64,000 nt of DNA from Roseiflexaceae bacterium. GTDB taxonomy: Bacteria; Chloroflexota; Chloroflexia; Chloroflexales; Roseiflexaceae. The stretch lies in NCBI GenBank assembly GCA_042408595.1, contig JBHOQX010000107.1, positions 36,432 through 100,431 of the forward strand. The letters run 5' to 3'. Under the pieces are notes generated by a model. It was not told where the DNA came from. It searched no databases and saw nothing but the letters and a program-made list of their open reading frames with translations. Of this stretch, positions 9,532-56,922 are shown piece by piece; the stretch's first letter is position 1, and every line of letters starts with the position of its first letter. The position numbers and the translations under genes are program-made.

Positions 9532-9961
9532 GGCGCACCTCCTCTGCGCAGGGCCTGTCTAGCGCATCATTGCACCTATCATCGCAGAGAAAGATGTAGT
9601 TTTCCCGATGATTGTGTTAAGTTCAGGCTAAATCTTTGCTAAATGCGCATGCTGGTGGCTGCGTGTTCTCGCGGCCGTCCTTCCTGCTACGTTCCCGTCG
9701 CGGGGGGATCTGTGCGCATGCCAGGCATCAGCATGGATTCCACCCATGGTTTTCTCCCTTGCGGGGGTAGGCTTTTACCTGTACCAGGCGCCAGTTCGAT
9801 CGCACCGCCGTCGGTTCCCTCTCTCCCGGGTTGGGAGACGGGGCAGCGATACGGACCGCGGGCGCTTGGCCACGTTGGCAGAGAAACCTCCCCTCCGTAA
9901 GTCACTCCCCAAGCGCATGGCCGATTGACACGCTCGCGCCACCCCGCTACAATCCCGTGCC

Positions 9962-14541: not shown

Positions 14542-17500
14542 TCAGCGCATTGTGCGGATCGACTCGTAGAGCGCGGTCGTCTCGGGCATCGGCTCGACCC
14601 CAAGTTCGGCGCGCAGCACATCCGCACAGCGGGCGTAGAGCCGGAGCGCTGTGCTACGCTCACCAAGGTAGGCATGAGCGTGCATCAGCAGGCGGTAGGC
14701 GCCTTCATTGCCAGGGTCGGACTCCAGGGCGCGCCACCCCACCCCGATCGCCGCGTGCGCCTGCCCTATGTCGAGCAGGAGCGTGCCGAGCCGCAGCGCC
14801 GCCTCGTTGAATACGAACCCTAGCCGCTCGCGCTCCAGTGCCGTCCAGTCCTCGTAGAGCGCGTCGGGCAAGTACGGCCCGCTGTAGAGATCGAGCGCAC
14901 GGCGCAGCGCGGCGATCGCCGCCTGCCGCCGGCCGTCCATCGCTGCCTGTTGCCCTTCGGCCACTGCCTGGTCGAACGCCAGGACATCCAGTTCGACCAG
15001 GCCCTCCAGGTTCAGGGCGAATGTCTCGCCTTGCTGCAACAGAAACGACGATGGTGCGCCGTCCGGGCGGTCCGGCTCGATCGCCTTGACCAGCCGGTTC
15101 ATCGTGACCCGCAGGTTGTTGGTAGCGATCTCCGGCTCCATGTGCGGCCAGAGCGCTTCCATCGCCTGCTCGCGCGTCACCCAGCGGCCGCGCTCGGTGA
15201 CCAGCAACTGCAACAATTGCCGCGCCTTGCTGCTGCGCCACTCGCGTTCGCGGATCTCTTGCTCGCCGCGCCAGATCCCGAATGCGCCGAGCGTGCGGAT
15301 GCGGAGGGTGTAGGGCGGGCGGTAAACCAGCCGCTTGAGGGCGCTCTCGGCGGCGGCGCGCACCCCACTGTCGCGGTCTTTCAGCAGCGGGCGCAGCGCG
15401 GCGAATGCCCCGCCGCTGCCCAGATCCCCGAGCAATGCGGCGGCGGCGGCCCGCAGCGCGGCATCTGGCTCGCCCAGCAGCCCGGCGAGCAGGTCGGCGG
15501 CCTGTTCCGGCAGGTGGTGTCGCAGCAGCGGCCCCACCGCCGCGGGCGGCACGCCGGCCCGCAGCCCGGCCACCGCGATATCCGCCACCGCGGCCTGCGG
15601 CAGCAGTGGTAGGAACGTCACCCGATCGTCGATCACGATCTGCCACCCGGCCCGTAGCGCCGCCGCGCGCGCCGGCGGGTCGCTCGCGCCGATCAGGTGG
15701 GCGCAGTAGAGGCGGGCAGCGGCCAGGAACAGGCGGTAGCCCTGCTGCTCCATCAGCGCCGCCGCCTCTTGCGCCAGCTCCAGCGCCCGTGCTGGCTCGC
15801 CGCTCTCGCCCAGGATCAGCGCCAGCAGCAGCCAGTAGCGCAGGTCGGCAGCCGCGCCCGGCTCGCGCAGCCGACGCCGCACGCTTGCGACTGCCGCGCG
15901 GGCGTTGGCCGCCTGGCCGCGGCGGAGCAGTGCGTAAAATTCGATGACCTGGAGCGTGGCGAGTGGCCCGAGCGCCCCCAGCTCCTGCAGCGTGCCGCGC
16001 GCCTGGGCGATATAGGTCATCGCCTCGTCCGGACGGTCGTTCAGCGCTAGCAGCAGCGCCAGCCGAGCGGCGCTGTAGGCTGCGATCCCGCCATAGCCGT
16101 AGTCGCTCAGGTGCCGATGCGACTCGGCGGCAAGCGCCAGCCCCTCGGCGAGCTGGCCCTGCTCGGCGAGCGCCAGACTCTTCAGGCCGAGCAGCGCCTG
16201 GCGCAGCCGATCGTCGCAATCGATCGCCGGCGTCTGAAGCGCTTCGTCTACCGCGCGACAGGCCTCGGCGGGCAGGCCGAGCTGGCAGGCCATCGAGCCG
16301 ACGGTCATCGCCAGCAGCCAGCGCCACATGGTGCCGAGCGGGTAGGCGGCGGCGTGCCGGGCGACCCGCAGGACAGCCGGACCACGCCCGCGCGCCGAGA
16401 GCAGCAGCGCGACGCAGACCAGTGCCGCCCCGCGCGACCACTGGTCGCGGGTGCGGTTGGCGGCACGGATAGCCTGGATGCAGACCCCCTCGAGTTTGGC
16501 GATCCGCCCCTGGAGCACCAAAATGACCGCCAGCTTCCCCAGCGCGGCCAGCCGGCGGTCCCAGCGGCGTTGGCGCTCGTACAGCTCGGCGGCTCGCTCG
16601 ATCACCGGCGCTGCGCTGATGGGGTCGGCGAGCGCCTGACTGACGCCCCACATATGGAGTAGATCCGGGTCGCCGTCGCGTTGTGCTGGGTCAAGCCGGG
16701 CCAGCCAGCGCCGCACCGTTTCGCGGCGCGGCGAGTTCAACAGCGGCCAGGCGCGCTCGCGTAACGCGCGCACCAGGTCGTCCGTGGCACCGGCGCTGGC
16801 GTAATGCTCGAGCGCGGCCTCCAGCGCACCGCGGGCCTCGAGCGCCCGCCCGAAGCGCAGTCGCAGCGTGTTGAGCGTGTCCACGCCAAGCCGCTCGGTG
16901 GCGGTGCGGAGCAGCAACTCGCGCCACAGCGGGTGAAAGTGCAACTGGTCGCCCCGCGCATCGACCGACTGGAGCGGCAGGCCGAGCGCGCGCGCTCGCC
17001 CGATGAGATAGGCCGCATCCTCGCATTCCAGCACCTCCTCCAGCAAGGCGGCGTCGAACTGTGCCGGAACCGATGCCAGACATAGGAACTCGACCAGCTC
17101 GGCCGGCAGATCGGCCAACACCTCAGTGGCCAGGTAGGCCAGCAGCTGCTCCTGGGAGCCGCCGAGCGCGCGGACGAACGCCCCGCGCCGGTCGGCCGGC
17201 TGCGCAGCCAGCGCCCGCGCCGCGAACTGCACACTCAGCGCCCACCCGCCGGTGCGCTCCAGCAGCAGCATGAGCTCCGGCTCGTTCAGCGTCGTGCCCT
17301 GCTGCGCCAGCATCCGACGGATATCATCGACCGTCAGGTGCAGGTCGTGCTGCGAGAGCTCCACCAAGCGGCCTTCGGCGCGCAGCCGCGGAATCGGCGC
17401 GAACGACGGCTCGCGCCGCGACGCGATAATCACCCGCAGGCCCGGCGGCGCGGCGCGCAGCAGGTAGCCGATGATCTGCCCGATCACCGCCGAGTCGAGC

Positions 17501-17973
17501 ACGGCGTGCAGATCGTCCAGTATCAGGAACGTGGCCGCGGTGATCTGCCGCTGAAGGTCGGCGCAGAGCGCGCCGGCGACAAGCGGCCAGTCGCGATCAA
17601 GGTTCGCGGCGCTGTGTAGGATGCGCCAGGCATCCGCGCCGATGCCGGGAAACACCCGGCGGAACGCGCTGATCAGGTATGCCAGAAAGATCGCCGGGTC
17701 GCGCTCGCCGGGCGCCAGCCCCAACCACACGACGGGCGCGCCGGTGCGGGCTAGCTCGCGCGCCCACTGCACGAGCAGGGTCGTCTTACCGAAGCCGGCT
17801 GGCGCCACGAGCAACGTCAGCGGGTAGAGGCGCACCTCGGACAGGATCGCCTGAAGATCCAGGCGGAGCAGCGCGCCGTCGGCCAGCGGCGGCGGCGTCA
17901 GTTTGAGCGGCAGGATCAGCTGCACAGAGGGGGGCGGCTGGAAGCGCGGGCGCTGGTGGCGGGCAGTCTGCAT
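14542..17973 (-). CDS. STAND-like transcriptional regulator: N-terminal MalT-type AAA NTPase, then TPR and HEAT repeats, then a C-terminal OmpR-type winged helix plus BTAD (SARP module)
   Basis: Walker A LLVAPAGFGKTTLLVQWA. A TPR-like central helical region. HEAT/PBS repeats (LLGDLGSGGAFAALRPLLKDRDSGVRAAAESAL). The C-terminus reads RIRTLGAFGIWRGEQEI...ALYEDWTALERERL...AYRLLMHAHAYLGERSTALRLYARCADVLRAELGVEP, a SARP DNA-binding domain plus BTAD. The start is taken at MQTARHQ (17973). Confidence 0.75.
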   Translation of the reverse strand: MQTARHQRPRFQPPPSVQLILPLKLTPPPLADGALLRLDLQAILSEVRLYPLTLLVAPAGFGKTTLLVQWARELARTGAPVVWLGLAPGERDPAIFLAYLISAFRRVFPGIGADAWRILHSAANLDRDWPLVAGALCADLQRQITAATFLILDDLHAVLDSAVIGQIIGYLLRAAPPGLRVIIASRREPSFAPIPRLRAEGRLVELSQHDLHLTVDDIRRMLAQQGTTLNEPELMLLLERTGGWALSVQFAARALAAQPADRRGAFVRALGGSQEQLLAYLATEVLADLPAELVEFLCLASVPAQFDAALLEEVLECEDAAYLIGRARALGLPLQSVDARGDQLHFHPLWRELLLRTATERLGVDTLNTLRLRFGRALEARGALEAALEHYASAGATDDLVRALRERAWPLLNSPRRETVRRWLARLDPAQRDGDPDLLHMWGVSQALADPISAAPVIERAAELYERQRRWDRRLAALGKLAVILVLQGRIAKLEGVCIQAIRAANRTRDQWSRGAALVCVALLLSARGRGPAVLRVARHAAAYPLGTMWRWLLAMTVGSMACQLGLPAEACRAVDEALQTPAIDCDDRLRQALLGLKSLALAEQGQLAEGLALAAESHRHLSDYGYGGIAAYSAARLALLLALNDRPDEAMTYIAQARGTLQELGALGPLATLQVIEFYALLRRGQAANARAAVASVRRRLREPGAAADLRYWLLLALILGESGEPARALELAQEAAALMEQQGYRLFLAAARLYCAHLIGASDPPARAAALRAGWQIVIDDRVTFLPLLPQAAVADIAVAGLRAGVPPAAVGPLLRHHLPEQAADLLAGLLGEPDAALRAAAAALLGDLGSGGAFAALRPLLKDRDSGVRAAAESALKRLVYRPPYTLRIRTLGAFGIWRGEQEIREREWRSSKARQLLQLLVTERGRWVTREQAMEALWPHMEPEIATNNLRVTMNRLVKAIEPDRPDGAPSSFLLQQGETFALNLEGLVELDVLAFDQAVAEGQQAAMDGRRQAAIAALRRALDLYSGPYLPDALYEDWTALERERLGFVFNEAALRLGTLLLDIGQAHAAIGVGWRALESDPGNEGAYRLLMHAHAYLGERSTALRLYARCADVLRAELGVEPMPETTALYESIRTMR

Positions 17974-18127
17974 AGCGGTCCTGACGCGAATGAACACCTG
18001 GATCGGATTATAGCAGCCGGGCCGGCGGTGGAAACGCCCGGGACGTGTGCGGTTTCGGCGCAAACGGGTAACGAAGACGCCCATTCTATGGTACGATCTC
18101 GCCATTCTCTACAGAGAGGGATCCCCC

Positions 18128-22785: not shown

Positions 22786-24777
22786 ATGGCACAGCGTAAA
22801 CGCGCGCTCATCACCGGCATCACCGGGCAGGACGGCTCGTACCTCGCCGAGCTGCTGCTAGAGCAGGGCTACGAGGTCATCGGTATGCTGCGCCGCTCCA
22901 GCACCGTCAATTTCGAGCGCATCCAGCATATTCAGGACCGCCTCACGCTTGTCACCGGCGACCTGCTGGACGAGGTGTCGCTCATCCACCTGCTGCGCGA
23001 GCACCGCCCTGCCGAAGTCTACAACCTGGCGGCCCAGAGCTTTGTGCAGACATCCTTCTCACAGCCGGTCTTCACCGGCGAGGTGACGGCGCTCGGCGTC
23101 ACCCGCATGCTCGACGCCATCCGGATCGCCGACCCAGACATCCGCTTCTACCAGGCCAGCTCCTCGGAGATGTTCGGCAAGGTCGTCGAGGTGCCGCAGC
23201 GCGAGACGACCCCATTTTACCCCCGCTCGCCCTATGGCGTCGCAAAGGTCTACGGGCACTGGATCACGGTCAACTATCGTGAGAGCTATGGCATGCACGC
23301 CAGCAGCGGGATTCTGTTCAACCACGAGTGCATCGCCAGCACGACGCCGCTCCTTGTTCGGCGCCAGGGGGTTGTTGATGTCGCCTTCCCCGACGAACTG
23401 GCGCCCGTGATCCGCAACGGGCGCCCGGTGCAGACAGTCGAACTGCGCGATGTCGAGATCTGGGATGGCGCGGTCTGGACGCCCGTGCGGTCGATCACCG
23501 CCACCCACCGCCGCACGACCGACCCGGATCATCAGATGCTCGGCGTGCAGGCGCGTGGCGGTGTCGTGACCGTCACCGCACACCACCACATGCTCGACGC
23601 GCAGCGCGAGATTGTCCCGGCGCACCGGCTGCACCCAGGCGACCGATTGGCCCTCGCTGACCGCGTGCCAGAATTGCCCGCCTGGACGGTCCTCACCACC
23701 GAATTCGCGGAACTTCTTGGCCTCCTTGCCGCGGGAGGCTCCATTCAGGGCGAGGAGCGCATTCAGTTTACCAATAACGACCCGACACTGCGCGCGCGTG
23801 TCGTCACTCTCTGGTCCCGGCTCTTCCTCGGCGCCGCCTCGACGTGCATCCTGCCATCCGGCTTCAATCCAGAGGGCCAGGTCGAGCAGGTCTCCCTGAC
23901 GGCGAGCCCGGCGCTCGCCCGGTGGCTGCGCTCGCAACTGTACCACGAGAGCGGCTACAAGCGGGTGCCGCAGCTCGTACTGAACGGCAGCCGTGCCATC
24001 CAGGACGCCTTCCTCGCCGGCTATTGCGCGGGCGATGGGCTGCAGGCCGGCAACGGTGAGAGCATCAAGACCAACAGCCCGCTCCTGGCGCAGGGGCTCT
24101 GGTGGCTCCATCGTGCCCAGGGACGGTCCTGCTCGGTCGATGTCGAGCACCGCGGCGAGGTTGCCTCTTACCAGCTCAACATCGGTACCGCCAACCTGCC
24201 TGGCGAGAAGGAGCAGCACCTGCGCAAACCGGCGGACGAGGTCCGGCGCGTCGAGCCGGTGCCGACCGCCGATCCTTGGGTGTTCGACCTGGAAACCGAA
24301 AGTGGCATCTTCTGCGCCGGGATCGGCGGAATCGTTGTGCACAACAGCCCGCGGCGCGGCCTTGAGTTCGTCACCCGCAAGATCACCCATGGCGTGGCCC
24401 GCATCAAGCTCGGCCTGGACCGCGAGCTGCGCCTGGGCAACCTCGACGCGCAGCGCGACTGGGGCTACGCCAAAGACTACGTCAGGGCGATGTGGCTGAT
24501 GCTCCAACAGGACACGCCGGGCGACTATGTCGTCGCCACCGGGACGACCCACACTGTGCGGCGCTTCTGCGAGCTGGCGTTCGAGGCAGCCGGCCTCGAC
24601 TACCGCGACTATGTGGTGCAGGACGAGCGCTTCTTCCGCCCGGCGGAAGTCGATCTGCTGGTCGGCGACCCATCCAAGGCGAAGGCGGTGCTCGGCTGGC
24701 AGCCGGAGACGACGTTCGAGGAGCTGGTGCAACGCATGGTCGAGAGCGACCTGGCGCTGCTGAGGGCCGGCCGCTGA
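22786..24777 (+). CDS. gmd: GDP-mannose 4,6-dehydratase interrupted in-frame by a 339-aa intein
   Basis: The exteins are colinear with Gmd (ITGITGQDGSYLAELLL ... GILFNHE | SPRRGLEFVTRKIT...). The insertion lies exactly at the NHE/SPRRG catalytic motif. Confidence 0.9.
   Translation: MAQRKRALITGITGQDGSYLAELLLEQGYEVIGMLRRSSTVNFERIQHIQDRLTLVTGDLLDEVSLIHLLREHRPAEVYNLAAQSFVQTSFSQPVFTGEVTALGVTRMLDAIRIADPDIRFYQASSSEMFGKVVEVPQRETTPFYPRSPYGVAKVYGHWITVNYRESYGMHASSGILFNHECIASTTPLLVRRQGVVDVAFPDELAPVIRNGRPVQTVELRDVEIWDGAVWTPVRSITATHRRTTDPDHQMLGVQARGGVVTVTAHHHMLDAQREIVPAHRLHPGDRLALADRVPELPAWTVLTTEFAELLGLLAAGGSIQGEERIQFTNNDPTLRARVVTLWSRLFLGAASTCILPSGFNPEGQVEQVSLTASPALARWLRSQLYHESGYKRVPQLVLNGSRAIQDAFLAGYCAGDGLQAGNGESIKTNSPLLAQGLWWLHRAQGRSCSVDVEHRGEVASYQLNIGTANLPGEKEQHLRKPADEVRRVEPVPTADPWVFDLETESGIFCAGIGGIVVHNSPRRGLEFVTRKITHGVARIKLGLDRELRLGNLDAQRDWGYAKDYVRAMWLMLQQDTPGDYVVATGTTHTVRRFCELAFEAAGLDYRDYVVQDERFFRPAEVDLLVGDPSKAKAVLGWQPETTFEELVQRMVESDLALLRAGR
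23329..24345 (+). mobile_element. Intein (339 aa) with a LAGLIDADG homing endonuclease domain inside gmd
   Basis: Begins with Cys (CIAST...) and ends with HN followed by a Ser +1. Block B T..H (VTAHHH). Block F/G VFDLETESG...GIVVHN. Two LAGLIDADG-like motifs (ELLGLLAAGGSI and AFLAGYCAGDGL). Confidence 0.85.
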
Positions 24778-25501: not shown

Positions 25502-28500
25502 TTATGGACGGCCGCCGAGCCGCGTCAGCGCCGCGCGGGCTTCGCCGTCCCACGCCGCCGCGCCATCGAGCGCGAGCGCCTCGCGCAGCGAGCGCACCGC
25601 CTTATCGATCTTGCCGGCCTGCTCGGCCGCAAGCCCGAGGTAGAACTTCGCCTCGGCGTCGTCCGGGCGCTGGCTCACAGCCGCCTCGAACGCCCGCATC
25701 GCACGGTCCGGCTGCTGGCTGGCCAGGTAGGCGCGGCCCAACCAGTAGTGCGCGTCCGGGTTGTACGGCTGCAGCGCAACCGCCCGCTCCAGGTCGTGCA
25801 CCGCCGACGCCAGCCGCGACTCGCGCAGGTCGAGCCGCGCACGCAGATAGTAGGCCTCGGCGAGCGTGCTATCGTCGCGGATGGCGCGGGTGTACAGGCT
25901 GCGCGCCGTCGGCAGGTCGTTCTGGCGCTCGGCGATCAGCCCCTGCACGAGGCGTGCCGCGCCGACCTCGGCCCTGCTATCCAGCACGGCCTGGAGCGTG
26001 GCCGTCGCGCCGGCCAGGTCACCCGTGTCGAGTTGCGCCCGCGCCAGGCCGATCCGGGCCGCGGCATCGTTGGGTGCTTTCTGGAGCGCATGCTGGAAGT
26101 GCGCGATCGCGTCGCGTGGGGCGCCCTGCCGCCGCAGGGCCTCGCCCAGCGAGGTGTAGGGGCGCGGCGTGTCGGGCGCGGCTTCGATCGCTTTCTGGTA
26201 GTAGCTTTGGGCGACGGCAGGGCGGCCGCGGGCCAGCGCCACCCGCCCCATGCCGATATACGCGTCGGCCAGCTTGGGGTCGAGCTGCAGCGCCCGAGCG
26301 TAGCGCTGGTCGGCGTCATCGAGCTTATTATCGCGCAGAGCGATGTCGCCCAGGACCACCAGCGCGCGTGGGGCCTGTTCGCCCGAGAGCTTGAGGGCCC
26401 GGTCGGCCGCCGCACCGGCCTCGCGGACACGGCCGAGCTCCAGGTATACCGGCGCAAGCTGCTCCAGAACGGATATCCGCGCTGTGTCATCGGCGCTCTT
26501 GTCGAGCGCCCGTTCCAGCGCCCGCGCGGCAGTATCACTGTCGCCGAGCTGCCGGAAGTAGTCCCCGATCTCGCGCAGGGCGGCCGGGTCGTCGAGCCCA
26601 TCCGCGAGCGCCGCGGCATACTCCTCTTGGGCGGTTGCGGCCGCCGGCGGGGACTGGCGGGCCGCGATCCGGGCCAGCCCGAGGTGCGCCGCCGCCAGGT
26701 CGCGTTGGTGGTTAAGCGCGGCCAGGTACGCCTGCTGCGCTCCGGCGGTGTCGCCGACCTGGAGTAGCGCGTCGCCGAGCAGCACGGCGACTGTCGGATC
26801 GTCCGGGGCGAGCTGGTTGGCCCGCTCGAGCGCGGCGCGCGCCGCCGCCGGATTGCCGGCGGTGACGTAGAGCTGGCTCAACCGCTTCAGCGCGGGGACG
26901 GCCCGCCCCGCATCTGCGCTGTTCGCGTCCTCGAGCAGCAGCCGCTGCGCCTCATCGTAGCCGGCCGGCCCGCTGCCGATCAGGGCATCGACCAGCGCTT
27001 GCCTGTTCGCCGGCGTCACGAACTTCGCCGCCAGCCAGCGCCGTTGTTCGAGCGCTGTGGTTGGGTCCTTAAGCTCTTGCGCGAGGGTAGCCAGCCGCAT
27101 ACGCGCCGGGTAGTAGTCCGGGTTGAGCGCGATCGCCTGCCGCAGCAGGTCGGCGGCGCCCGTTTTGTCGCCCTTCGCCTCCAGGGCGCGTGCCTGGCCG
27201 TACAGCGGCTCGGGGCGCTGCGGCTCCTTGCGGGCGCAGGCCTCGAACTCCTTGCGCGCTTCGTCTGGCTGGCCGCCCGCCAGGTAGCTCTGAGCGATCA
27301 GCAGCCGAGTCTCGAACGTGTCGTTGCCTGCCTTGCGCAGCTCTTCCAGCCGGGCGCGCGCCCGCGCGGCCGGCGCGCGATCGCCGAAGAGCCATGACCA
27401 GAGGGCCGCCAGCCCGCTCGCCCGCGGCCGGGCCTCCGCCGTGGCCGCGCCGATGTCGGCGGCGGCGGCCAGCACCTGGCGCTGGCGCGACTCGCTGAGC
27501 GCCCGTTGCGCCTGGCCCTCGGCGATCTGGCTGGCCAGCTCGTCCCCGGCGGCGTCGCGCGCCAGGCCGTATTCGCGCCAGGCCCGCGCCACCGCGTCCG
27601 CGGCCCGGGCCGTGCCGTCCAGCGCGTCGCCAGCTGATGCGATCTCGCTGGCCGACGCCCCCTCGCCGAGCGCGAGGTCCCAGAGCAGCGGCCCGCGCGC
27701 GCCGGATGCCCGTGCCAGGGCAAACTGTGCTCGCGCCCCGTCCAGTTCGCTCCTCAGCACCTGCGCGAAGACCGTCTGGAGCGCGCGGCCCGCGGCCGCG
27801 TCGTCCGCCAGGCGATTAGCGTCTCCCAGATACGTTGTCGCCTGGCTGATCTCGCCGTTGCGCCAGGCGGTCTCCGCCAGCAGCAGCGAGAGCTCGGAGC
27901 TGGCCGGCAGCAGGTTCACCGCCGGCTCCAGCACATGCCTCGCTTCTTCGGGCTTGTTGTCGTCCAGGCTGATGCGCGCCAGGTTCACCCAAAGCGCGCC
28001 CAGGTCGCGGCCATTGAGGAGCTCCACCGCCCGCCCGAAGGCGATCCGCGCTCCCTCAAGGTCGCCGGCGTCCGTGAGCGCTACGCCGAGGTTGTTGGCG
28101 TAGATCGCCGCGCGCGGCGGCAGCGGGCCGGAGTCGCCCCGCGCGGCATCCGCAGCGGAGTCGAGCAGCCGGCGGTACTCGGCGGCGGCCTGCGCCGCGT
28201 CGCCGCGCGCCCAGAGCAGGTTCGCGCGCAGCATGCCGGGCAGGTCCGGCGCGAGCCCCGGTGCGTCGGTGGCGAGCTGGTCGAGCGTGGCGGCGGTGCC
28301 CCACTCGCCGGCGCCGTAGGCGCGAAGCGCGTCGAGCAGCCTGGGGAGGACGATCTGCCCGTTGATCGGCGCGACGGCCAGCGGCATGGCCGCCGGCTCG
28401 GCGAAGCGTGTCGAGTAGCCGACCCAGCTTCGTGGCGCGTACGGCCCGAGCGGGCGGTACACCAGCACCGGGACGAGCGCCTCCTGGTCGAGCAGGGCGC

Positions 28501-29062
28501 CCGGCGCGATCGAGCCGCTGATCAGGACATCGGCCTCCTCGCGCGCGAGCGCCGCCAGCGCCGCCGCGTCGTCGGGCGGGGCCTCGGCGAGCAGGCGGGC
28601 CTGGACGCGGCCGCCCGTGGCCTGGGGGAGCAACGCGGCGAGTTGCGCGGCAGCGGCGCGGCCCGTTGCGCCCGGCGCGCCAGTTCCATCGCGGAACGGG
28701 GCGATAAGCACCACAAAGTCGTCAGGCGTGGGGCCGATCAAGGCGGGAAGCTGCCACAGCCCGAACAGAACGAGCGCCGCCGCGGCCAGGCCGACCCCCA
28801 GGCGGCGCGGCCCCACCCGGCGCCACCAGGGCGTATCGGCGGGCAGGGTGCGGCGCGGCTGTTTCAGGCTGGTCCAGAGCATGCCGGCGCGGCGGCGGGC
28901 TGTGGCCCAGCGCGAGCCGCGCTCCATGATCGGGGAGACGACACCCTGGTGGATCAACTCCTGTTTGGCGGGTGGCGGCGGCCGGCGGAGTCGCTGGATC
29001 CAGAGCGCCACCACGATCGTTGCCAGCAGCAGGGCCATCAGCAGGATAATCAACTGCGCCAT
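25502..29062 (-). CDS. Large membrane-anchored TPR-repeat protein (1186 aa)
   Basis: N-terminal TM (LLMALLLATIVVALWI) and a second hydrophobic segment. The C-terminal ~800 aa are consecutive 34-aa TPR units (AxxxY/L...A..P repeats). Confidence 0.75.
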   Translation of the reverse strand: MAQLIILLMALLLATIVVALWIQRLRRPPPPAKQELIHQGVVSPIMERGSRWATARRRAGMLWTSLKQPRRTLPADTPWWRRVGPRRLGVGLAAAALVLFGLWQLPALIGPTPDDFVVLIAPFRDGTGAPGATGRAAAAQLAALLPQATGGRVQARLLAEAPPDDAAALAALAREEADVLISGSIAPGALLDQEALVPVLVYRPLGPYAPRSWVGYSTRFAEPAAMPLAVAPINGQIVLPRLLDALRAYGAGEWGTAATLDQLATDAPGLAPDLPGMLRANLLWARGDAAQAAAEYRRLLDSAADAARGDSGPLPPRAAIYANNLGVALTDAGDLEGARIAFGRAVELLNGRDLGALWVNLARISLDDNKPEEARHVLEPAVNLLPASSELSLLLAETAWRNGEISQATTYLGDANRLADDAAAGRALQTVFAQVLRSELDGARAQFALARASGARGPLLWDLALGEGASASEIASAGDALDGTARAADAVARAWREYGLARDAAGDELASQIAEGQAQRALSESRQRQVLAAAADIGAATAEARPRASGLAALWSWLFGDRAPAARARARLEELRKAGNDTFETRLLIAQSYLAGGQPDEARKEFEACARKEPQRPEPLYGQARALEAKGDKTGAADLLRQAIALNPDYYPARMRLATLAQELKDPTTALEQRRWLAAKFVTPANRQALVDALIGSGPAGYDEAQRLLLEDANSADAGRAVPALKRLSQLYVTAGNPAAARAALERANQLAPDDPTVAVLLGDALLQVGDTAGAQQAYLAALNHQRDLAAAHLGLARIAARQSPPAAATAQEEYAAALADGLDDPAALREIGDYFRQLGDSDTAARALERALDKSADDTARISVLEQLAPVYLELGRVREAGAAADRALKLSGEQAPRALVVLGDIALRDNKLDDADQRYARALQLDPKLADAYIGMGRVALARGRPAVAQSYYQKAIEAAPDTPRPYTSLGEALRRQGAPRDAIAHFQHALQKAPNDAAARIGLARAQLDTGDLAGATATLQAVLDSRAEVGAARLVQGLIAERQNDLPTARSLYTRAIRDDSTLAEAYYLRARLDLRESRLASAVHDLERAVALQPYNPDAHYWLGRAYLASQQPDRAMRAFEAAVSQRPDDAEAKFYLGLAAEQAGKIDKAVRSLREALALDGAAAWDGEARAALTRLGGRP

Positions 29063-29068
29063 CGCCGG

Positions 29069-30394
29069 TTACTCCTCCAGCCGTGCGAGCTGGCTGACGC
29101 ACGCCAGGAGCTGCTGAAACTGGAACGGCTGCTGAATGTACGCACGCGCCCCGTGCGCGAAGGCCACGTCTTCATCCTCCGCGCGTGGCGAGGTGATCAC
29201 CAGCGGCGTCGCTGGCGTGTCATTCCGGCATGTCTCGGCGAACTCCCACAGCGCATCGCCCAGGCGCGCATCCGCCAGAATCAACGCGACCGCTGGCTCG
29301 TGCGACAGGTAGGCGTTCGCCTGGGGTACGTCCGGCGCCGTGAGTACCCGGTACCCCTGCGCGCTCAGCGCGTTGCCAAGAAAGCCGGCGAGGTTGGCGT
29401 CCGGCACAAGCAGCAGCACCGTCGGCACCCGCCGCCCGCGCCGCTCCGCGTCCACCGGCTGGCCGTCCGGGCTGCGGATGTCGATCGCATAGGTGCTCCC
29501 GGGTTGGCGCTTGGCGAAGCGCTTCATTGCGGCGGCCACCCGGCTCACTTCTTCATGGTCGGCGTACTGCCGGTTGCGGTTGGTTGCCACGCCGATCGCC
29601 AGCGAGATGACCGGAAAGCGCCGGCCGAAGCCCTGGCGGTCCACACCCTGCAGGAAGCCGCGCTCCAGATCCGCCGGGTCGTACAGCGCCCGCGCTCGTT
29701 GGTCGAACAGCTTCAGGCTTTCGATACAGAGCGTCTCGACACGGTCGGGCGTCGTAAGGAAGGCGAAATCATCGCCACCGATATGGCCGAGGAAGTCGCT
29801 CGGGCCGCCGTGTGTCGCCAGAGTCTCGGAGAGGACCGTGGCCACCAGTTTGATCATGCGGTCGCCGCGGGCGTAGCCGTAGGTATCGTTGAACGCCTTG
29901 AAGTTGTTCAGATCGGCATGGCAGAGGGCGAACGGCTCGTCGCGGCGGACACGGCGCTTCAGTTCCTCGGTGAGCAGGATGTTGCCCGGCAGCCCGGTGA
30001 GCGGGTTGTTCACCGACGGCTGGGCGGCGCGGCGCAGATGGCTCTTGATGCGTGCCACCAGCTCCGGCACGTTGAACGGTTTGGTCACATAGTCGTCCGC
30101 GCCCGTCTCGAAGCCGAGCACGACGTCGGTGGGGGTCATGCGGGCGGTGAGGATCAGCGTGGGGATGTGCGCCGTGCGCGTGTCGTTGCGCAACTGGCGG
30201 ATGACTTCATAGCCGTCCACGCCGGGCATCATCAGATCGACGATCGCCATGTCCGGCACATATTCCTGCGCCAGCCGGATGCACTCGATGCCGTCCTCGG
30301 CCGCCAGCACCTCAAACCCCTGCTCCTCCAGCATCAACTGCAGCAGTTCGCGAATGGATGGTTGGTCGTCTGCGATCAGGATGCGTTTGGTCAT
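29069..30394 (-). CDS. Response regulator with a GGDEF diguanylate cyclase domain (REC-GGDEF-REC-like), GG(D/E)EF motif present as GGDDF
   Basis: REC domain (KRILIADDQPSIREL...DLMMPGVDGY...TARMT). GGDEF domain (LTGLPGN...RGDRMIKLVA...GHIGGDDFAFL). C-terminal REC-like fold. The start is moved to MTKRILIADD. Confidence 0.8.
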   Translation of the reverse strand: MTKRILIADDQPSIRELLQLMLEEQGFEVLAAEDGIECIRLAQEYVPDMAIVDLMMPGVDGYEVIRQLRNDTRTAHIPTLILTARMTPTDVVLGFETGADDYVTKPFNVPELVARIKSHLRRAAQPSVNNPLTGLPGNILLTEELKRRVRRDEPFALCHADLNNFKAFNDTYGYARGDRMIKLVATVLSETLATHGGPSDFLGHIGGDDFAFLTTPDRVETLCIESLKLFDQRARALYDPADLERGFLQGVDRQGFGRRFPVISLAIGVATNRNRQYADHEEVSRVAAAMKRFAKRQPGSTYAIDIRSPDGQPVDAERRGRRVPTVLLLVPDANLAGFLGNALSAQGYRVLTAPDVPQANAYLSHEPAVALILADARLGDALWEFAETCRNDTPATPLVITSPRAEDEDVAFAHGARAYIQQPFQFQQLLACVSQLARLEE

Positions 30395-30451
30395 AGATGA
30401 GCCGCGAGCGCCGGCGCGGGGCGCGATTAGGCGTATGCCGCTCGTCATCGG

Positions 30452-56837: not shown

Positions 56838-56922
56838 GGGGATGTGGCGAAATTGGCAGACGCGCAAGTCTTAGGAACTTGTGGAGCAATCCGTGAGGGT
56901 TCGAGTCCCTCCGTCCCCACCA
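56838..56922 (+). tRNA. tRNA-Leu (anticodon UAG), class II with long variable arm, CCA encoded
   Basis: Acceptor GGGGATG/CGTCCCC. 3-bp D-stem with GG in the D-loop. Anticodon stem CAAGT/ACTTG with loop CTTAGGA. T-arm GAGGG-TTCGAGT-CCCTC. Discriminator A followed by CCA. Confidence 0.85.

Follow-up and report, generated by a model that had tools for sequence, protein, structure and literature searches.

A MalT-type STAND regulator with a C-terminal SARP module in a Roseiflexaceae bacterium, and the putative target gene of its Chloroflexales family

Introduction

Work on the transcription activators known as SARPs, and on the unusual way in which they recruit RNA polymerase, has been confined almost entirely to actinomycetes and has always dealt with proteins carrying the SARP module N-terminally. 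This is the position given in the SARP review and in the papers on AfsR for every class of these proteins (small, medium, large and SARP-LAL). The module combines an OmpR-type winged helix-turn-helix (wHTH) with a BTAD domain, a pair dedicated to the recruitment of RNA polymerase. The promoters depending on SARPs characteristically have no usable -35 element, and the afs box bound by AfsR consists of two 11-bp direct repeats beginning at -40 and -29. The present study deals with a large regulator gene carried by a 64,000-nucleotide stretch of DNA from a Roseiflexaceae bacterium (GenBank assembly GCA_042408595.1, contig JBHOQX010000107.1), called the window below. In the protein encoded by this gene, the SARP module occupies residues 889-1143 of 1143, that is to say the C-terminal end, and is preceded by a STAND ATPase of the MalT type.

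Comparisons between the window and related loci lead us to consider this regulator as probably a cytoplasmic, signal-sensing STAND transcription activator, the family of which has a small gene, called gene A here, as its predicted target, while the target in the window would be unlinked to the regulator gene. A previous sequence-only reading of the window had described the protein as an AfsR with an inverted architecture, and had proposed that it might control envelope lipid or glycan genes via the divergent MGDG-synthase-like gene. The first of these ideas had to be modified, and the second one found no support.

Results

Domain architecture of the regulator

The domain order read previously from the sequence, namely an N-terminal P-loop STAND NTPase followed by helical and HEAT repeats and by a C-terminal wHTH and BTAD, was borne out by profile searches and structure prediction (the coordinates of the domains and motifs are given in Table 1). 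The P-loop quoted at that time, LLVAPAGFGKTTLLVQWA, is present in the protein, and the Walker A motif is located at residues 57-65. The NCBIfam MalT model PRK04841 matched residues 21-460 (E 1.8e-52) with 178.5 bits as compared with its cut-off of 537 bits, the match being limited to positions 3-434 of the 903 in the model. When the profile of the orthologue family was compared with the PDB, residues 17-428 were aligned with the MalT NOD (8bob, E 1.9e-47), and 8bob_C was also the top Foldseek match of the AlphaFold2 model, which has a mean predicted local distance difference test score (pLDDT) of 81 and in which some 30 helices come after a Rossmann-like NTPase. Homologues of the regulator are recorded as carrying PF25873 (WHD_MalT). 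Weak Pfam P-loop matches, including one with nSTAND_NTPase5, were obtained at residues 48-160, and no GerE/LuxR (E <= 0.1), NB-ARC or TPR model of Pfam matched the regulator.

In addition to the residues of the Walker motifs, RR186-187 and GW243-244 are invariant in the alignment of the orthologues. The FHPLW motif of the winged-helix domain is a putative counterpart of the MHD or F-Y-HD histidine switch of STAND/NLR proteins, the role of which has been described for AfsR and NLRs in a bioRxiv preprint. The protein therefore carries features typical of STAND proteins: Walker A and B motifs, a helical domain, a winged helix with a conserved histidine, and a repeat sensor along with a separate SARP effector.

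The region following the NTPase had been described as TPR-like. This held at the structural level, the AlphaFold2 model being all-helical there and matching TPR superhelices and the STAND-TPR protein 6mfv in Foldseek searches, but not at the level of sequence models, since none of those for TPR was matched. The block located just ahead of the output module resembles HEAT repeats: Pfam HEAT_2 matched residues 827-882 with 27.2 bits, slightly under the cut-off of 27.7, and the profile of the family matched alphaRep/HEAT proteins of the PDB over residues ~810-881 with E-values down to 5e-29.

Both of the Pfam models expected for a SARP module matched the C-terminal segment: Trans_reg_C at residues 914-969, with 34.3 bits as compared with a cut-off of 26.2, and BTAD at residues 995-1140 over the full length of the model (E 2.5e-29). 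The NCBIfam AfsR model gave 43.8 bits, the cut-off being 1430, and matched only this SARP part. The AfsR structures 8k60, 8jke and 8hvr were aligned by the family profile with residues 894-1138 (E ~2e-9), and the EmbR structure 2fez was found as well; in the Foldseek search the BTAD was matched by AfsR 8k60_J (TM-score 0.55, target-normalised). The alignment of the module spans residues 47-260 of AfsR and 33-254 of EmbR, and that of the wHTH spans AfsR residues 47-97. The AfsR residues W74, P79, R87, R92 and K95, which are in contact with DNA, correspond to W942, P947, R955, R960 and K963 in the regulator, while three other contact residues are replaced (Q48 by K916, T88 by V956 and R94 by V962). 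Since contact residues are kept but T88 is a valine, this pattern fits a competent DNA binder of different specificity.

Judging from these matches, the accurate label is that of a MalT-type STAND regulator in which the LuxR output has been swapped for a SARP module. The protein is not an inverted AfsR, because its NTPase belongs to the MalT clade and because the order NOD, sensor and output is that of MalT. What stood of the earlier label was that this order is the reverse of that in the described SARP classes; what did not stand was the kinship with AfsR, the NTPase being of the MalT clade and not of the NB-ARC type.

Gene A and its promoter in the relatives

Gene A is a small uncharacterised open reading frame (ORF) of ~73 codons (about 70-80), which lies directly 3' of regulator orthologues in the convergent orientation. 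It occupies this position in 14 of the 18 distinct genome or assembly loci carrying an orthologue, and when metagenomes were searched starting from protein A, the regulator was found to be convergent and adjacent in 38 out of 48 distinct loci, with a median gap of ~85 bp. Three loci (L003, L006 and L008) have no adjacent gene A. The protein follows the pattern M..RR[VIT]E[SA]FL[LV]R[LI]VV...W.GR[IV]QH[IV].[ST]G.E..F...FI. Among its 318 homologues, the named ones are all "hypothetical" and the named sources are all Chloroflexales. No family in Pfam or NCBIfam was found for it; its AlphaFold2 model (pLDDT 67) shows three strands and one helix, and gave no Foldseek match in the PDB below E = 0.3.

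The promoter of gene A has the form GGTAAY-N5-GGTAAY-N10-TAnnnT, which was found in 13 of the 14 genome loci and in 54 of the 59 metagenome loci. The spacer between the repeats and the -10 element is exactly 10 nt long in 53 of the 54 metagenome boxes, and positions G2, T3, A5, T14 and A16 are invariant. With the -10 element set at -12 to -7, the GGTAAY repeats begin at -39 and -28. A position weight matrix (PWM) of the repeats alone, when run over the 1.08 Mb of fetched loci, detected one strong site per A-carrying orthologue locus, each of which is located upstream of A, plus a handful of scattered extra matches. A high-scoring box in L020 was dismissed as a chance match, since it lies inside the coding sequence of an AMP-ligase.

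Genes encoding A-like domains also adjoin a paralogous STAND-SARP gene (L023) and small SARP-only genes of Anaerolineaceae (L033 and L034). The repeat word beside these proteins is G(C/T)(A/T/G)AC(C/T), located 9 nt from the -10 element. Their recognition helix reads RDFKVALNALN, whereas that of all the orthologues of the window protein reads NNLRVTxxRLxK. The box word thus covaries with the recognition helix, GGTAAY occurring with NNLRVTxxRLxK and the other words with RDFKVALNALN, and this covariation is the best available evidence that the adjacent SARP protein may read the predicted box.

Gene A is not always linked to the regulator: in L105, L108, L111, L116, L129, L131 and L142, unlinked A genes have kept the box. 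The system could therefore work in trans, and an action of this kind of the regulator on gene A is plausible. In loci of the Oscillochloridaceae/Chloroflexaceae type, a Ser/Thr kinase gene lies directly upstream of the regulator on the same strand; it has no counterpart in the window.

In some of the loci (L001:11769-13502, L006, L007, L011, L018 and L019), the block located past gene A consists of an ORF called B (73 aa), the threonine ammonia-lyase gene ilvA and an ORF called C (~70 aa). The small ORFs B and C belong to no known family. L007 carries an IS605 OrfB/TnpB-type gene (PF01385, PF07282) between A and B.

Reading frame, promoter and conservation of the gene

The longest ORF on the minus strand at the regulator locus extends from 14542 to 18105 (1187 open codons). 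The ATG at 17973, which gives a protein of 1143 residues, was borne out as the start codon by the 21 aligned orthologues, all of which start within a few residues of it. The longer start at 18105 was rejected because the homologues stop short of it, none reaching so far, and because the conserved promoter falls within the extension. The G+C content at the third codon positions of the gene (0.87) matches that of the genuine genes of the window, the base composition of which is ~70% G+C. The element TGCTATAAT is kept upstream of the regulator orthologues in L003, L007, L008, L018, L110 and L126.

A strain with a 97%-identical regulator is represented by L009. The dN/dS ratio between the two genes is 0.31, which shows purifying selection on the regulator gene, and only 3 of the 255 residues of the SARP module differ. 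P0001, the 97%-identical protein, is also 1143 residues long and is encoded on two independent Logan assemblies. The strain of the window is likewise present in the Logan assemblies SRR35365466 and SRR30649429. All in all, comparison of the sequences confirmed that the regulator gene is intact and is no fusion artefact.

Distribution of the family

The search for homologues covered 5.8 billion proteins and yielded 603 homologues of the regulator at E <= 1e-10, the best 120 of which are collinear with it, 955-1223 residues long and 48-97% identical. Their named sources are Roseiflexaceae, Roseiflexus, Kouleothrix, Chloroflexaceae and Oscillochloris, and they bear labels such as "BTAD domain-containing putative transcriptional regulator" or "MalT / SARP family". 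A HMMER search was also made on 1.84 billion representatives of 50%-identity clusters, and the best 150 matches were mapped with sub-profiles of the NOD, wHTH and BTAD: all 141 of the representatives among them with at least 950 residues have the NOD at the N-terminus and the wHTH-BTAD at the C-terminus. In a scan of species-representative genomes, orthologues showing 46-61% identity were detected in Roseiflexus, Ca. Ribeiella, Oscillochloris, Chloroflexus and Viridilinea, and full-length relatives encoded by a single ORF, with 23-32% identity, in Anaerolineales, Dehalococcoidia, Syntrophomonadaceae, Paenibacillaceae and Dormiibacterota.

The same domain order therefore recurs in related genomes, throughout the Chloroflexales and in a larger set, and going by these alignments the regulator is the local orthologue of a Chloroflexales-wide family which is itself part of a much larger set of proteins with the same order. 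The architecture, which had been regarded as unusual, is real and no paper describing it was found; but judging from the searches it is widespread, common in Chloroflexota and already catalogued by annotation pipelines.

The target of the regulator in the window

On the 3' side of the regulator, the window carries a convergent FAD-dependent oxidoreductase gene 26 bp away, in the place where gene A lies in the relatives. L110 and L126, the regulators of which are 63% and 60% identical to that of the window, rank among the nearest relatives whose flanking DNA was retrieved, and both show the arrangement MGDG gene, divergent regulator, convergent gene A with its box. Because these two loci keep the MGDG gene, the regulator and gene A with the box, the window lineage has been affected on the A side only: its 5' flank was retained, and the 3' partner either disappeared or moved.

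Several points weigh against the regulator being an activator of an A-type promoter. Gene A was not found in the window with the hidden Markov model of protein A, applied to the six frames with the filters off (nothing better than E = 3), and GGTAA-N6-GGTAA has no match with at most one mismatch in the whole window. The target of the window gene may have been lost. The case for binding of the box in the relatives consists of synteny, promoter geometry and a covariation extending over two helix/box classes. The AlphaFold model has low confidence at residues 883-996 (the wHTH and the linker) and is uninformative about autoinhibitory docking, and V956, in place of the base-contacting T88 of AfsR, means that the details of the contacts differ. 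Lastly, no paper on a C-terminal SARP or on a SARP from Chloroflexi was found in the full-text literature, most subscription journals being outside its coverage. As regards the looser matches in the window, GGTAA-N6-GGTAA with two mismatches occurs eight times, as compared with 7.8 expected, which is the chance level, and the best score of the 33-nt PWM over the whole window was 7.1 bits, the true sites scoring 30-45 bits and shuffled sequences reaching maxima of 7.3 on average.

Since gene A and the box are missing from the window, the target must lie elsewhere or have been lost. An unlinked A-type promoter located elsewhere in the genome is most likely to be the target, because the DNA-reading residues have been retained and purifying selection acts on the gene. 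It might be argued that the regulator has been orphaned, gene A having been lost when the 3' flank was rearranged, and that it has been rewired to other targets or is heading for decay. The close relatives L110 and L126 keep both A and the box beside the regulator whereas neither is present over the 64 kb of the window, and L003, L006 and L008 likewise have no adjacent gene A, all of which is compatible with such a loss. However, the reading frame is intact, the dN/dS ratio is low with the SARP module nearly unchanged in the sister strain, every family-invariant residue has been kept, including those of the recognition helix, the strong conserved promoter is still there, and unlinked A genes with the box exist in other organisms. 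We therefore regard this orphan state as unlikely, and keep the unlinked A-type promoter as the preferred target.

The MGDG-synthase neighbour and the divergent intergenic region

The presence of a divergent MGDG-synthase-like neighbour separated from the regulator by 154 bp was verified. The idea that the regulator acts on this shared region, and thus controls the MGDG-synthase gene and, beyond it, genes for envelope lipids or glycans, draws on the recurrence of the divergent pairing, which was observed in the window, L009/L010, L003, L007, L008, L018, L110, L113, L126 and L128 (with MGDG orthologues at the same position that are 59% identical in L110 and 56% in L126), and on the glycosyltransferase and cell-wall genes present in the neighbourhood (GT4, MurT and GDP-mannose dehydratase). 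Against this idea, the SARP-type direct repeats sought in the region were not found there, nor in the equivalent regions of the relatives. The repeat search detected no SARP-type phased repeats between 17974 and 18127; apart from a single short chance-level family, there are no repeats with the 11-bp phasing, and the GGTAAY box of the family is matched nowhere in the window. The only repeat family present is a 9-nt word, which was rejected as a SARP box, its spacings being 21 and 39 bp and one of its copies lying in the MGDG coding region. Among the 6-mers recurring with a spacing of 10-12 or 21-23 bp, those common to the regulator-MGDG intergenic regions of the relatives amounted to GC-rich noise only, and a lone GGTAAC at ~18066..18071 (+) reads AGTAAC in the 97%-identical strain.

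What this region does conserve is two ordinary promoters placed back to back, TGCTATAAT for the regulator and TGGTA(C/G)GAT for the MGDG gene. The MGDG promoters of L110 and L126 are canonical sigma-70 promoters (TTTACA-N17/18-TAGGAT) with a good -35 and a good -10, unlike those dependent on SARPs. In addition, the MGDG adjacency is confined to one sub-clade (5 of the 18 distinct genome or assembly loci plus the metagenome loci L110, L113, L126 and L128), and it is missing in the Roseiflexus, Chloroflexus and Oscillochloris loci, in which the regulator is conserved to the same degree. The MGDG-synthase neighbour is thus probably not a target, and a role of the regulator in the control of envelope lipid or glycan genes seems slightly less likely still than the orphan state considered above.

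The MGDG orthologue of L003 (6633-7755), which belongs to an 11-Mb genome encoding P0014, looks frameshifted: it gives two tblastn segments in different frames and was called as proteins of 266 and 190 aa.

Table 1. Features of the regulator locus in the window, and of the related loci referred to in the text. Positions without a locus name are those of the window.
Feature	Coordinates	Strand	Basis or remarks
STAND-SARP regulator, coding sequence	14542..17973	-	1143 aa + stop
Regulator promoter, TTTCCA-N16-TG-n-TATAAT	18034..18007	-	Promoter scan: 10/12 matches + TG extension
MalT-clade NOD (nucleotide-binding domain, helical domain, winged-helix domain), aa 17-428	16690..17925	-	PRK04841, 8bob, Foldseek
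Walker A, APAGFGKTT, aa 57-65	17779..17805	-	A57, P58, A59, G60, G62, K63, T64, T65 invariant in 21 orthologues
Walker B, FLILDDLH, aa 149-156	17506..17529	-	D153, D154 invariant in 21 orthologues
FHPLW motif of the winged-helix domain, aa 346-350	16912..16938	-	F346, H347, P348 invariant in 21 orthologues
All-helical repeat arm, presumed sensor, aa 429-810	15544..16689	-	AlphaFold2 pLDDT mostly 85-95, helix hairpins all along; Foldseek TPR superhelices
PBS-lyase/HEAT-like repeats, aa 811-888	15310..15543	-	Pfam HEAT_2; alphaRep/HEAT profile match
OmpR-type wHTH, aa 889-990	15004..15309	-	Pfam Trans_reg_C; aligns with the AfsR ODB domain
Recognition-helix region LWPHMEPEIATNNLRVTMNRLVKAIEP, aa 941-967	15073..15153	-	W942, N952, N953, L954, R955, V956, T957, R960 invariant in orthologues
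BTAD, aa 991-1143	14545..15003	-	Pfam BTAD; AfsR and EmbR PDB matches; Foldseek 8k60_J
Divergent intergenic region, 154 bp	17974..18127		No SARP box found
Divergent MGDG-synthase-family glycosyltransferase, 380 aa	18128..19270	+	Pfam MGDG_synth E 1.6e-29; context only
Gene A, example	L001:11454-11675	-	A seen in L001, L004, L007, L011-L019, L021, L052, L091-L159
GGTAAY box, examples	L001:11757-11773; L012:9890-9906	-	Upstream of A; also L111, L142
Repeats + -10 in L023, GCAACT-N5-GCAACT-N5-GTTACC-N9-TAGAGT			
Repeats + -10 in L033, TGCAACC-N4-TGTGACC-N9-TACCCT			
Repeats + -10 in L034, TGTTACT-N4-TGCAACC-N9-TATACA			
Ser/Thr kinase gene	L004:5883-7826		Also L012, L013, L052, L103, L109, L118, L122, L135, L137, L149-L155

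Other features of the window

A GDP-mannose 4,6-dehydratase gene at 22786-24777 (+) is interrupted by an intein of ~320 aa with a LAGLIDADG homing-endonuclease region, the junctions of which read NHE/CIAS...VVHN/SPRRG (the slashes mark the splice points). In the intergenic region 9532-9961, which separates the MurT gene from a divergent gene for a GT4 glycosyltransferase, three copies of G(T/C)TAA(G/A) with an exact spacing of 11 bp are present at 9616-9645 (+), within an AT-rich patch; no -10 element is present at the SARP distance, and the score obtained with the GGTAAY matrix is at the chance level. The segment 11543-14515 (+) has two separate genes, one for a dCache-HAMP-STAS protein of 545 aa and the other for an FAD oxidoreductase of 393 aa, while the corresponding region of the 97%-identical strain (L009:5016-7862) was called as a dCache protein of 307 aa and a STAS-FAD protein of 599 aa, which suggests a frameshift or a difference in gene calling between the two strains. 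An unrelated 1186-aa protein consisting nearly entirely of TPR repeats is encoded at 25502-30448 (-), its gene coming immediately after a response-regulator/GGDEF gene of the same strand. The only Rfam match in the 64 kb is a tRNA gene at 56838-56919 (+).

Discussion

The regulator differs from the MalT/LAL proteins in having no LuxR output, and from the described SARP classes in the position of the SARP module and the clade of the NTPase, but it most probably functions in the manner of both. On the model of MalT and AfsR, the regulator with ADP bound would be an autoinhibited monomer, and the sensing of a ligand or a partner by the helical arm would allow ATP binding and oligomerisation. The oligomer could then bring SARP modules next to each other on direct repeats 11 bp apart; these repeats would cover the -35 and the spacer of a promoter with no usable -35 element, and the BTAD/wHTH pair would recruit RNA polymerase by the process called "sigma adaptation". 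Comparative genomics points to the ~73-aa gene A, usually placed tail-to-tail with the regulator and preceded by the GGTAAY-box promoter, as the target in the family, which would parallel the AfsR/afsS couple.

Many bacterial STAND/NLR-like proteins act in defence. Instead of being a transcription factor, the regulator might accordingly be a STAND NTPase acting in conflict or defence, with a DNA-binding tail as its effector; the weak nSTAND_NTPase5 match and a PADLOC match with mad8 (E 4e-6), which is limited to the P-loop region, point in that direction. The conservation of the family throughout the order and its stable synteny indicate vertical inheritance, however, and the neighbours in the window are housekeeping and envelope genes with no defence-island context. 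The protein carries no nuclease, protease, TIR or other toxic effector; its BTAD and wHTH are dedicated to RNA polymerase recruitment, and the linked promoter in the relatives has the exact geometry of an activator site. Since the PADLOC match is weak and there is no defence island, we set this role aside as very improbable. Nothing beyond the unusual domain order speaks for an assembly or annotation artefact fusing a MalT-like gene with a separate SARP gene, the chances of which are negligible given the single uninterrupted ORF, the protein P0001 obtained from two independent assemblies, the more than 120 collinear full-length homologues and the same order in all the distant representatives mapped.

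The signal-sensing activator with an unlinked target described at the outset therefore remains our preferred interpretation. A broader proposal, which we would neither favour nor disfavour at this stage, is that the Chloroflexales, and the Chloroflexota more widely, may own a SARP regulon which would be the first one outside Actinobacteria, composed of a STAND switch of the MalT clade, with its SARP module at the C-terminus, and an afs-box-like promoter of gene A, paired with a kinase in part of the family, the window gene being a member with an unlinked target. If this were true, it would amount to an analogue of the AfsK/AfsR/AfsS module that was put together independently, and the "sigma adaptation" module of SARPs would be able to work from either end of a STAND protein. 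The family shows that the SARP output is also in wide use in a second phylum, where it forms the C-terminal end of a MalT-type switch, and the comparative data offer a concrete predicted binding site and a predicted target gene in cultured Roseiflexus, Chloroflexus and Oscillochloris. They also raise the questions of whether a pair of SARP modules works when presented by an oligomerising C-terminal scaffold, what signal the switch responds to and what role the small protein A plays. As regards annotation, the window gene is a bona fide, though orphan-looking, member of the family, and its MGDG-synthase neighbour should not be annotated as its target.

Among the described systems, EmbR of Mycobacterium tuberculosis shares the fold of the wHTH and BTAD (PDB 2fez) and the fusion of a SARP module with a signalling domain, but its SARP module is N-terminal, its C-terminal domain is an FHA and it has no NTPase. 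The SARP-LAL proteins (PimR, FilR and SanG) likewise unite a SARP module and a LAL/MalT-like ATPase half in one polypeptide; in these proteins the SARP module comes first and the LAL half follows, whereas the regulator shows the opposite order, with the helical arm and the HEAT block in between.

The large SARPs of Streptomyces (AfsR, PolY and RslR3) resemble the regulator in combining a STAND NTPase, a SARP module and helical repeats. The predicted target promoter of the relatives has the geometry of the afs box, with two repeats 11 bp apart over the -35 and spacer region; the predicted target is a small adjacent gene, as in the AfsR/afsS pair, and the Ser/Thr kinase gene adjoining the regulator in part of the family is reminiscent of AfsK/AfsR. 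The regulator differs from AfsR in the C-terminal position of its SARP module and in its NTPase, which is of the MalT clade and not of the NB-ARC type. The repeat word of its relatives is GGTAAY, differing from the words beside the paralogue, the hosts are Chloroflexota and not Actinobacteria, no biosynthetic gene cluster lies nearby, and no sequence model assigns protein A to a known family, whether that of AfsS or another.

The comparison with MalT and the LAL proteins brings out differences in the output and the sensor: the regulator ends in an OmpR-type wHTH and a BTAD instead of a LuxR/GerE helix-turn-helix, it has a HEAT block ahead of this output, and its sensor shows no detectable similarity to that of MalT. 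It shares with them, however, the same clade of STAND NTPases and the order of NOD, helical sensor and C-terminal DNA-binding output, and presumably also the mode of action, in which ATP- and ligand-driven oligomerisation would be followed by cooperative binding at repeated sites.

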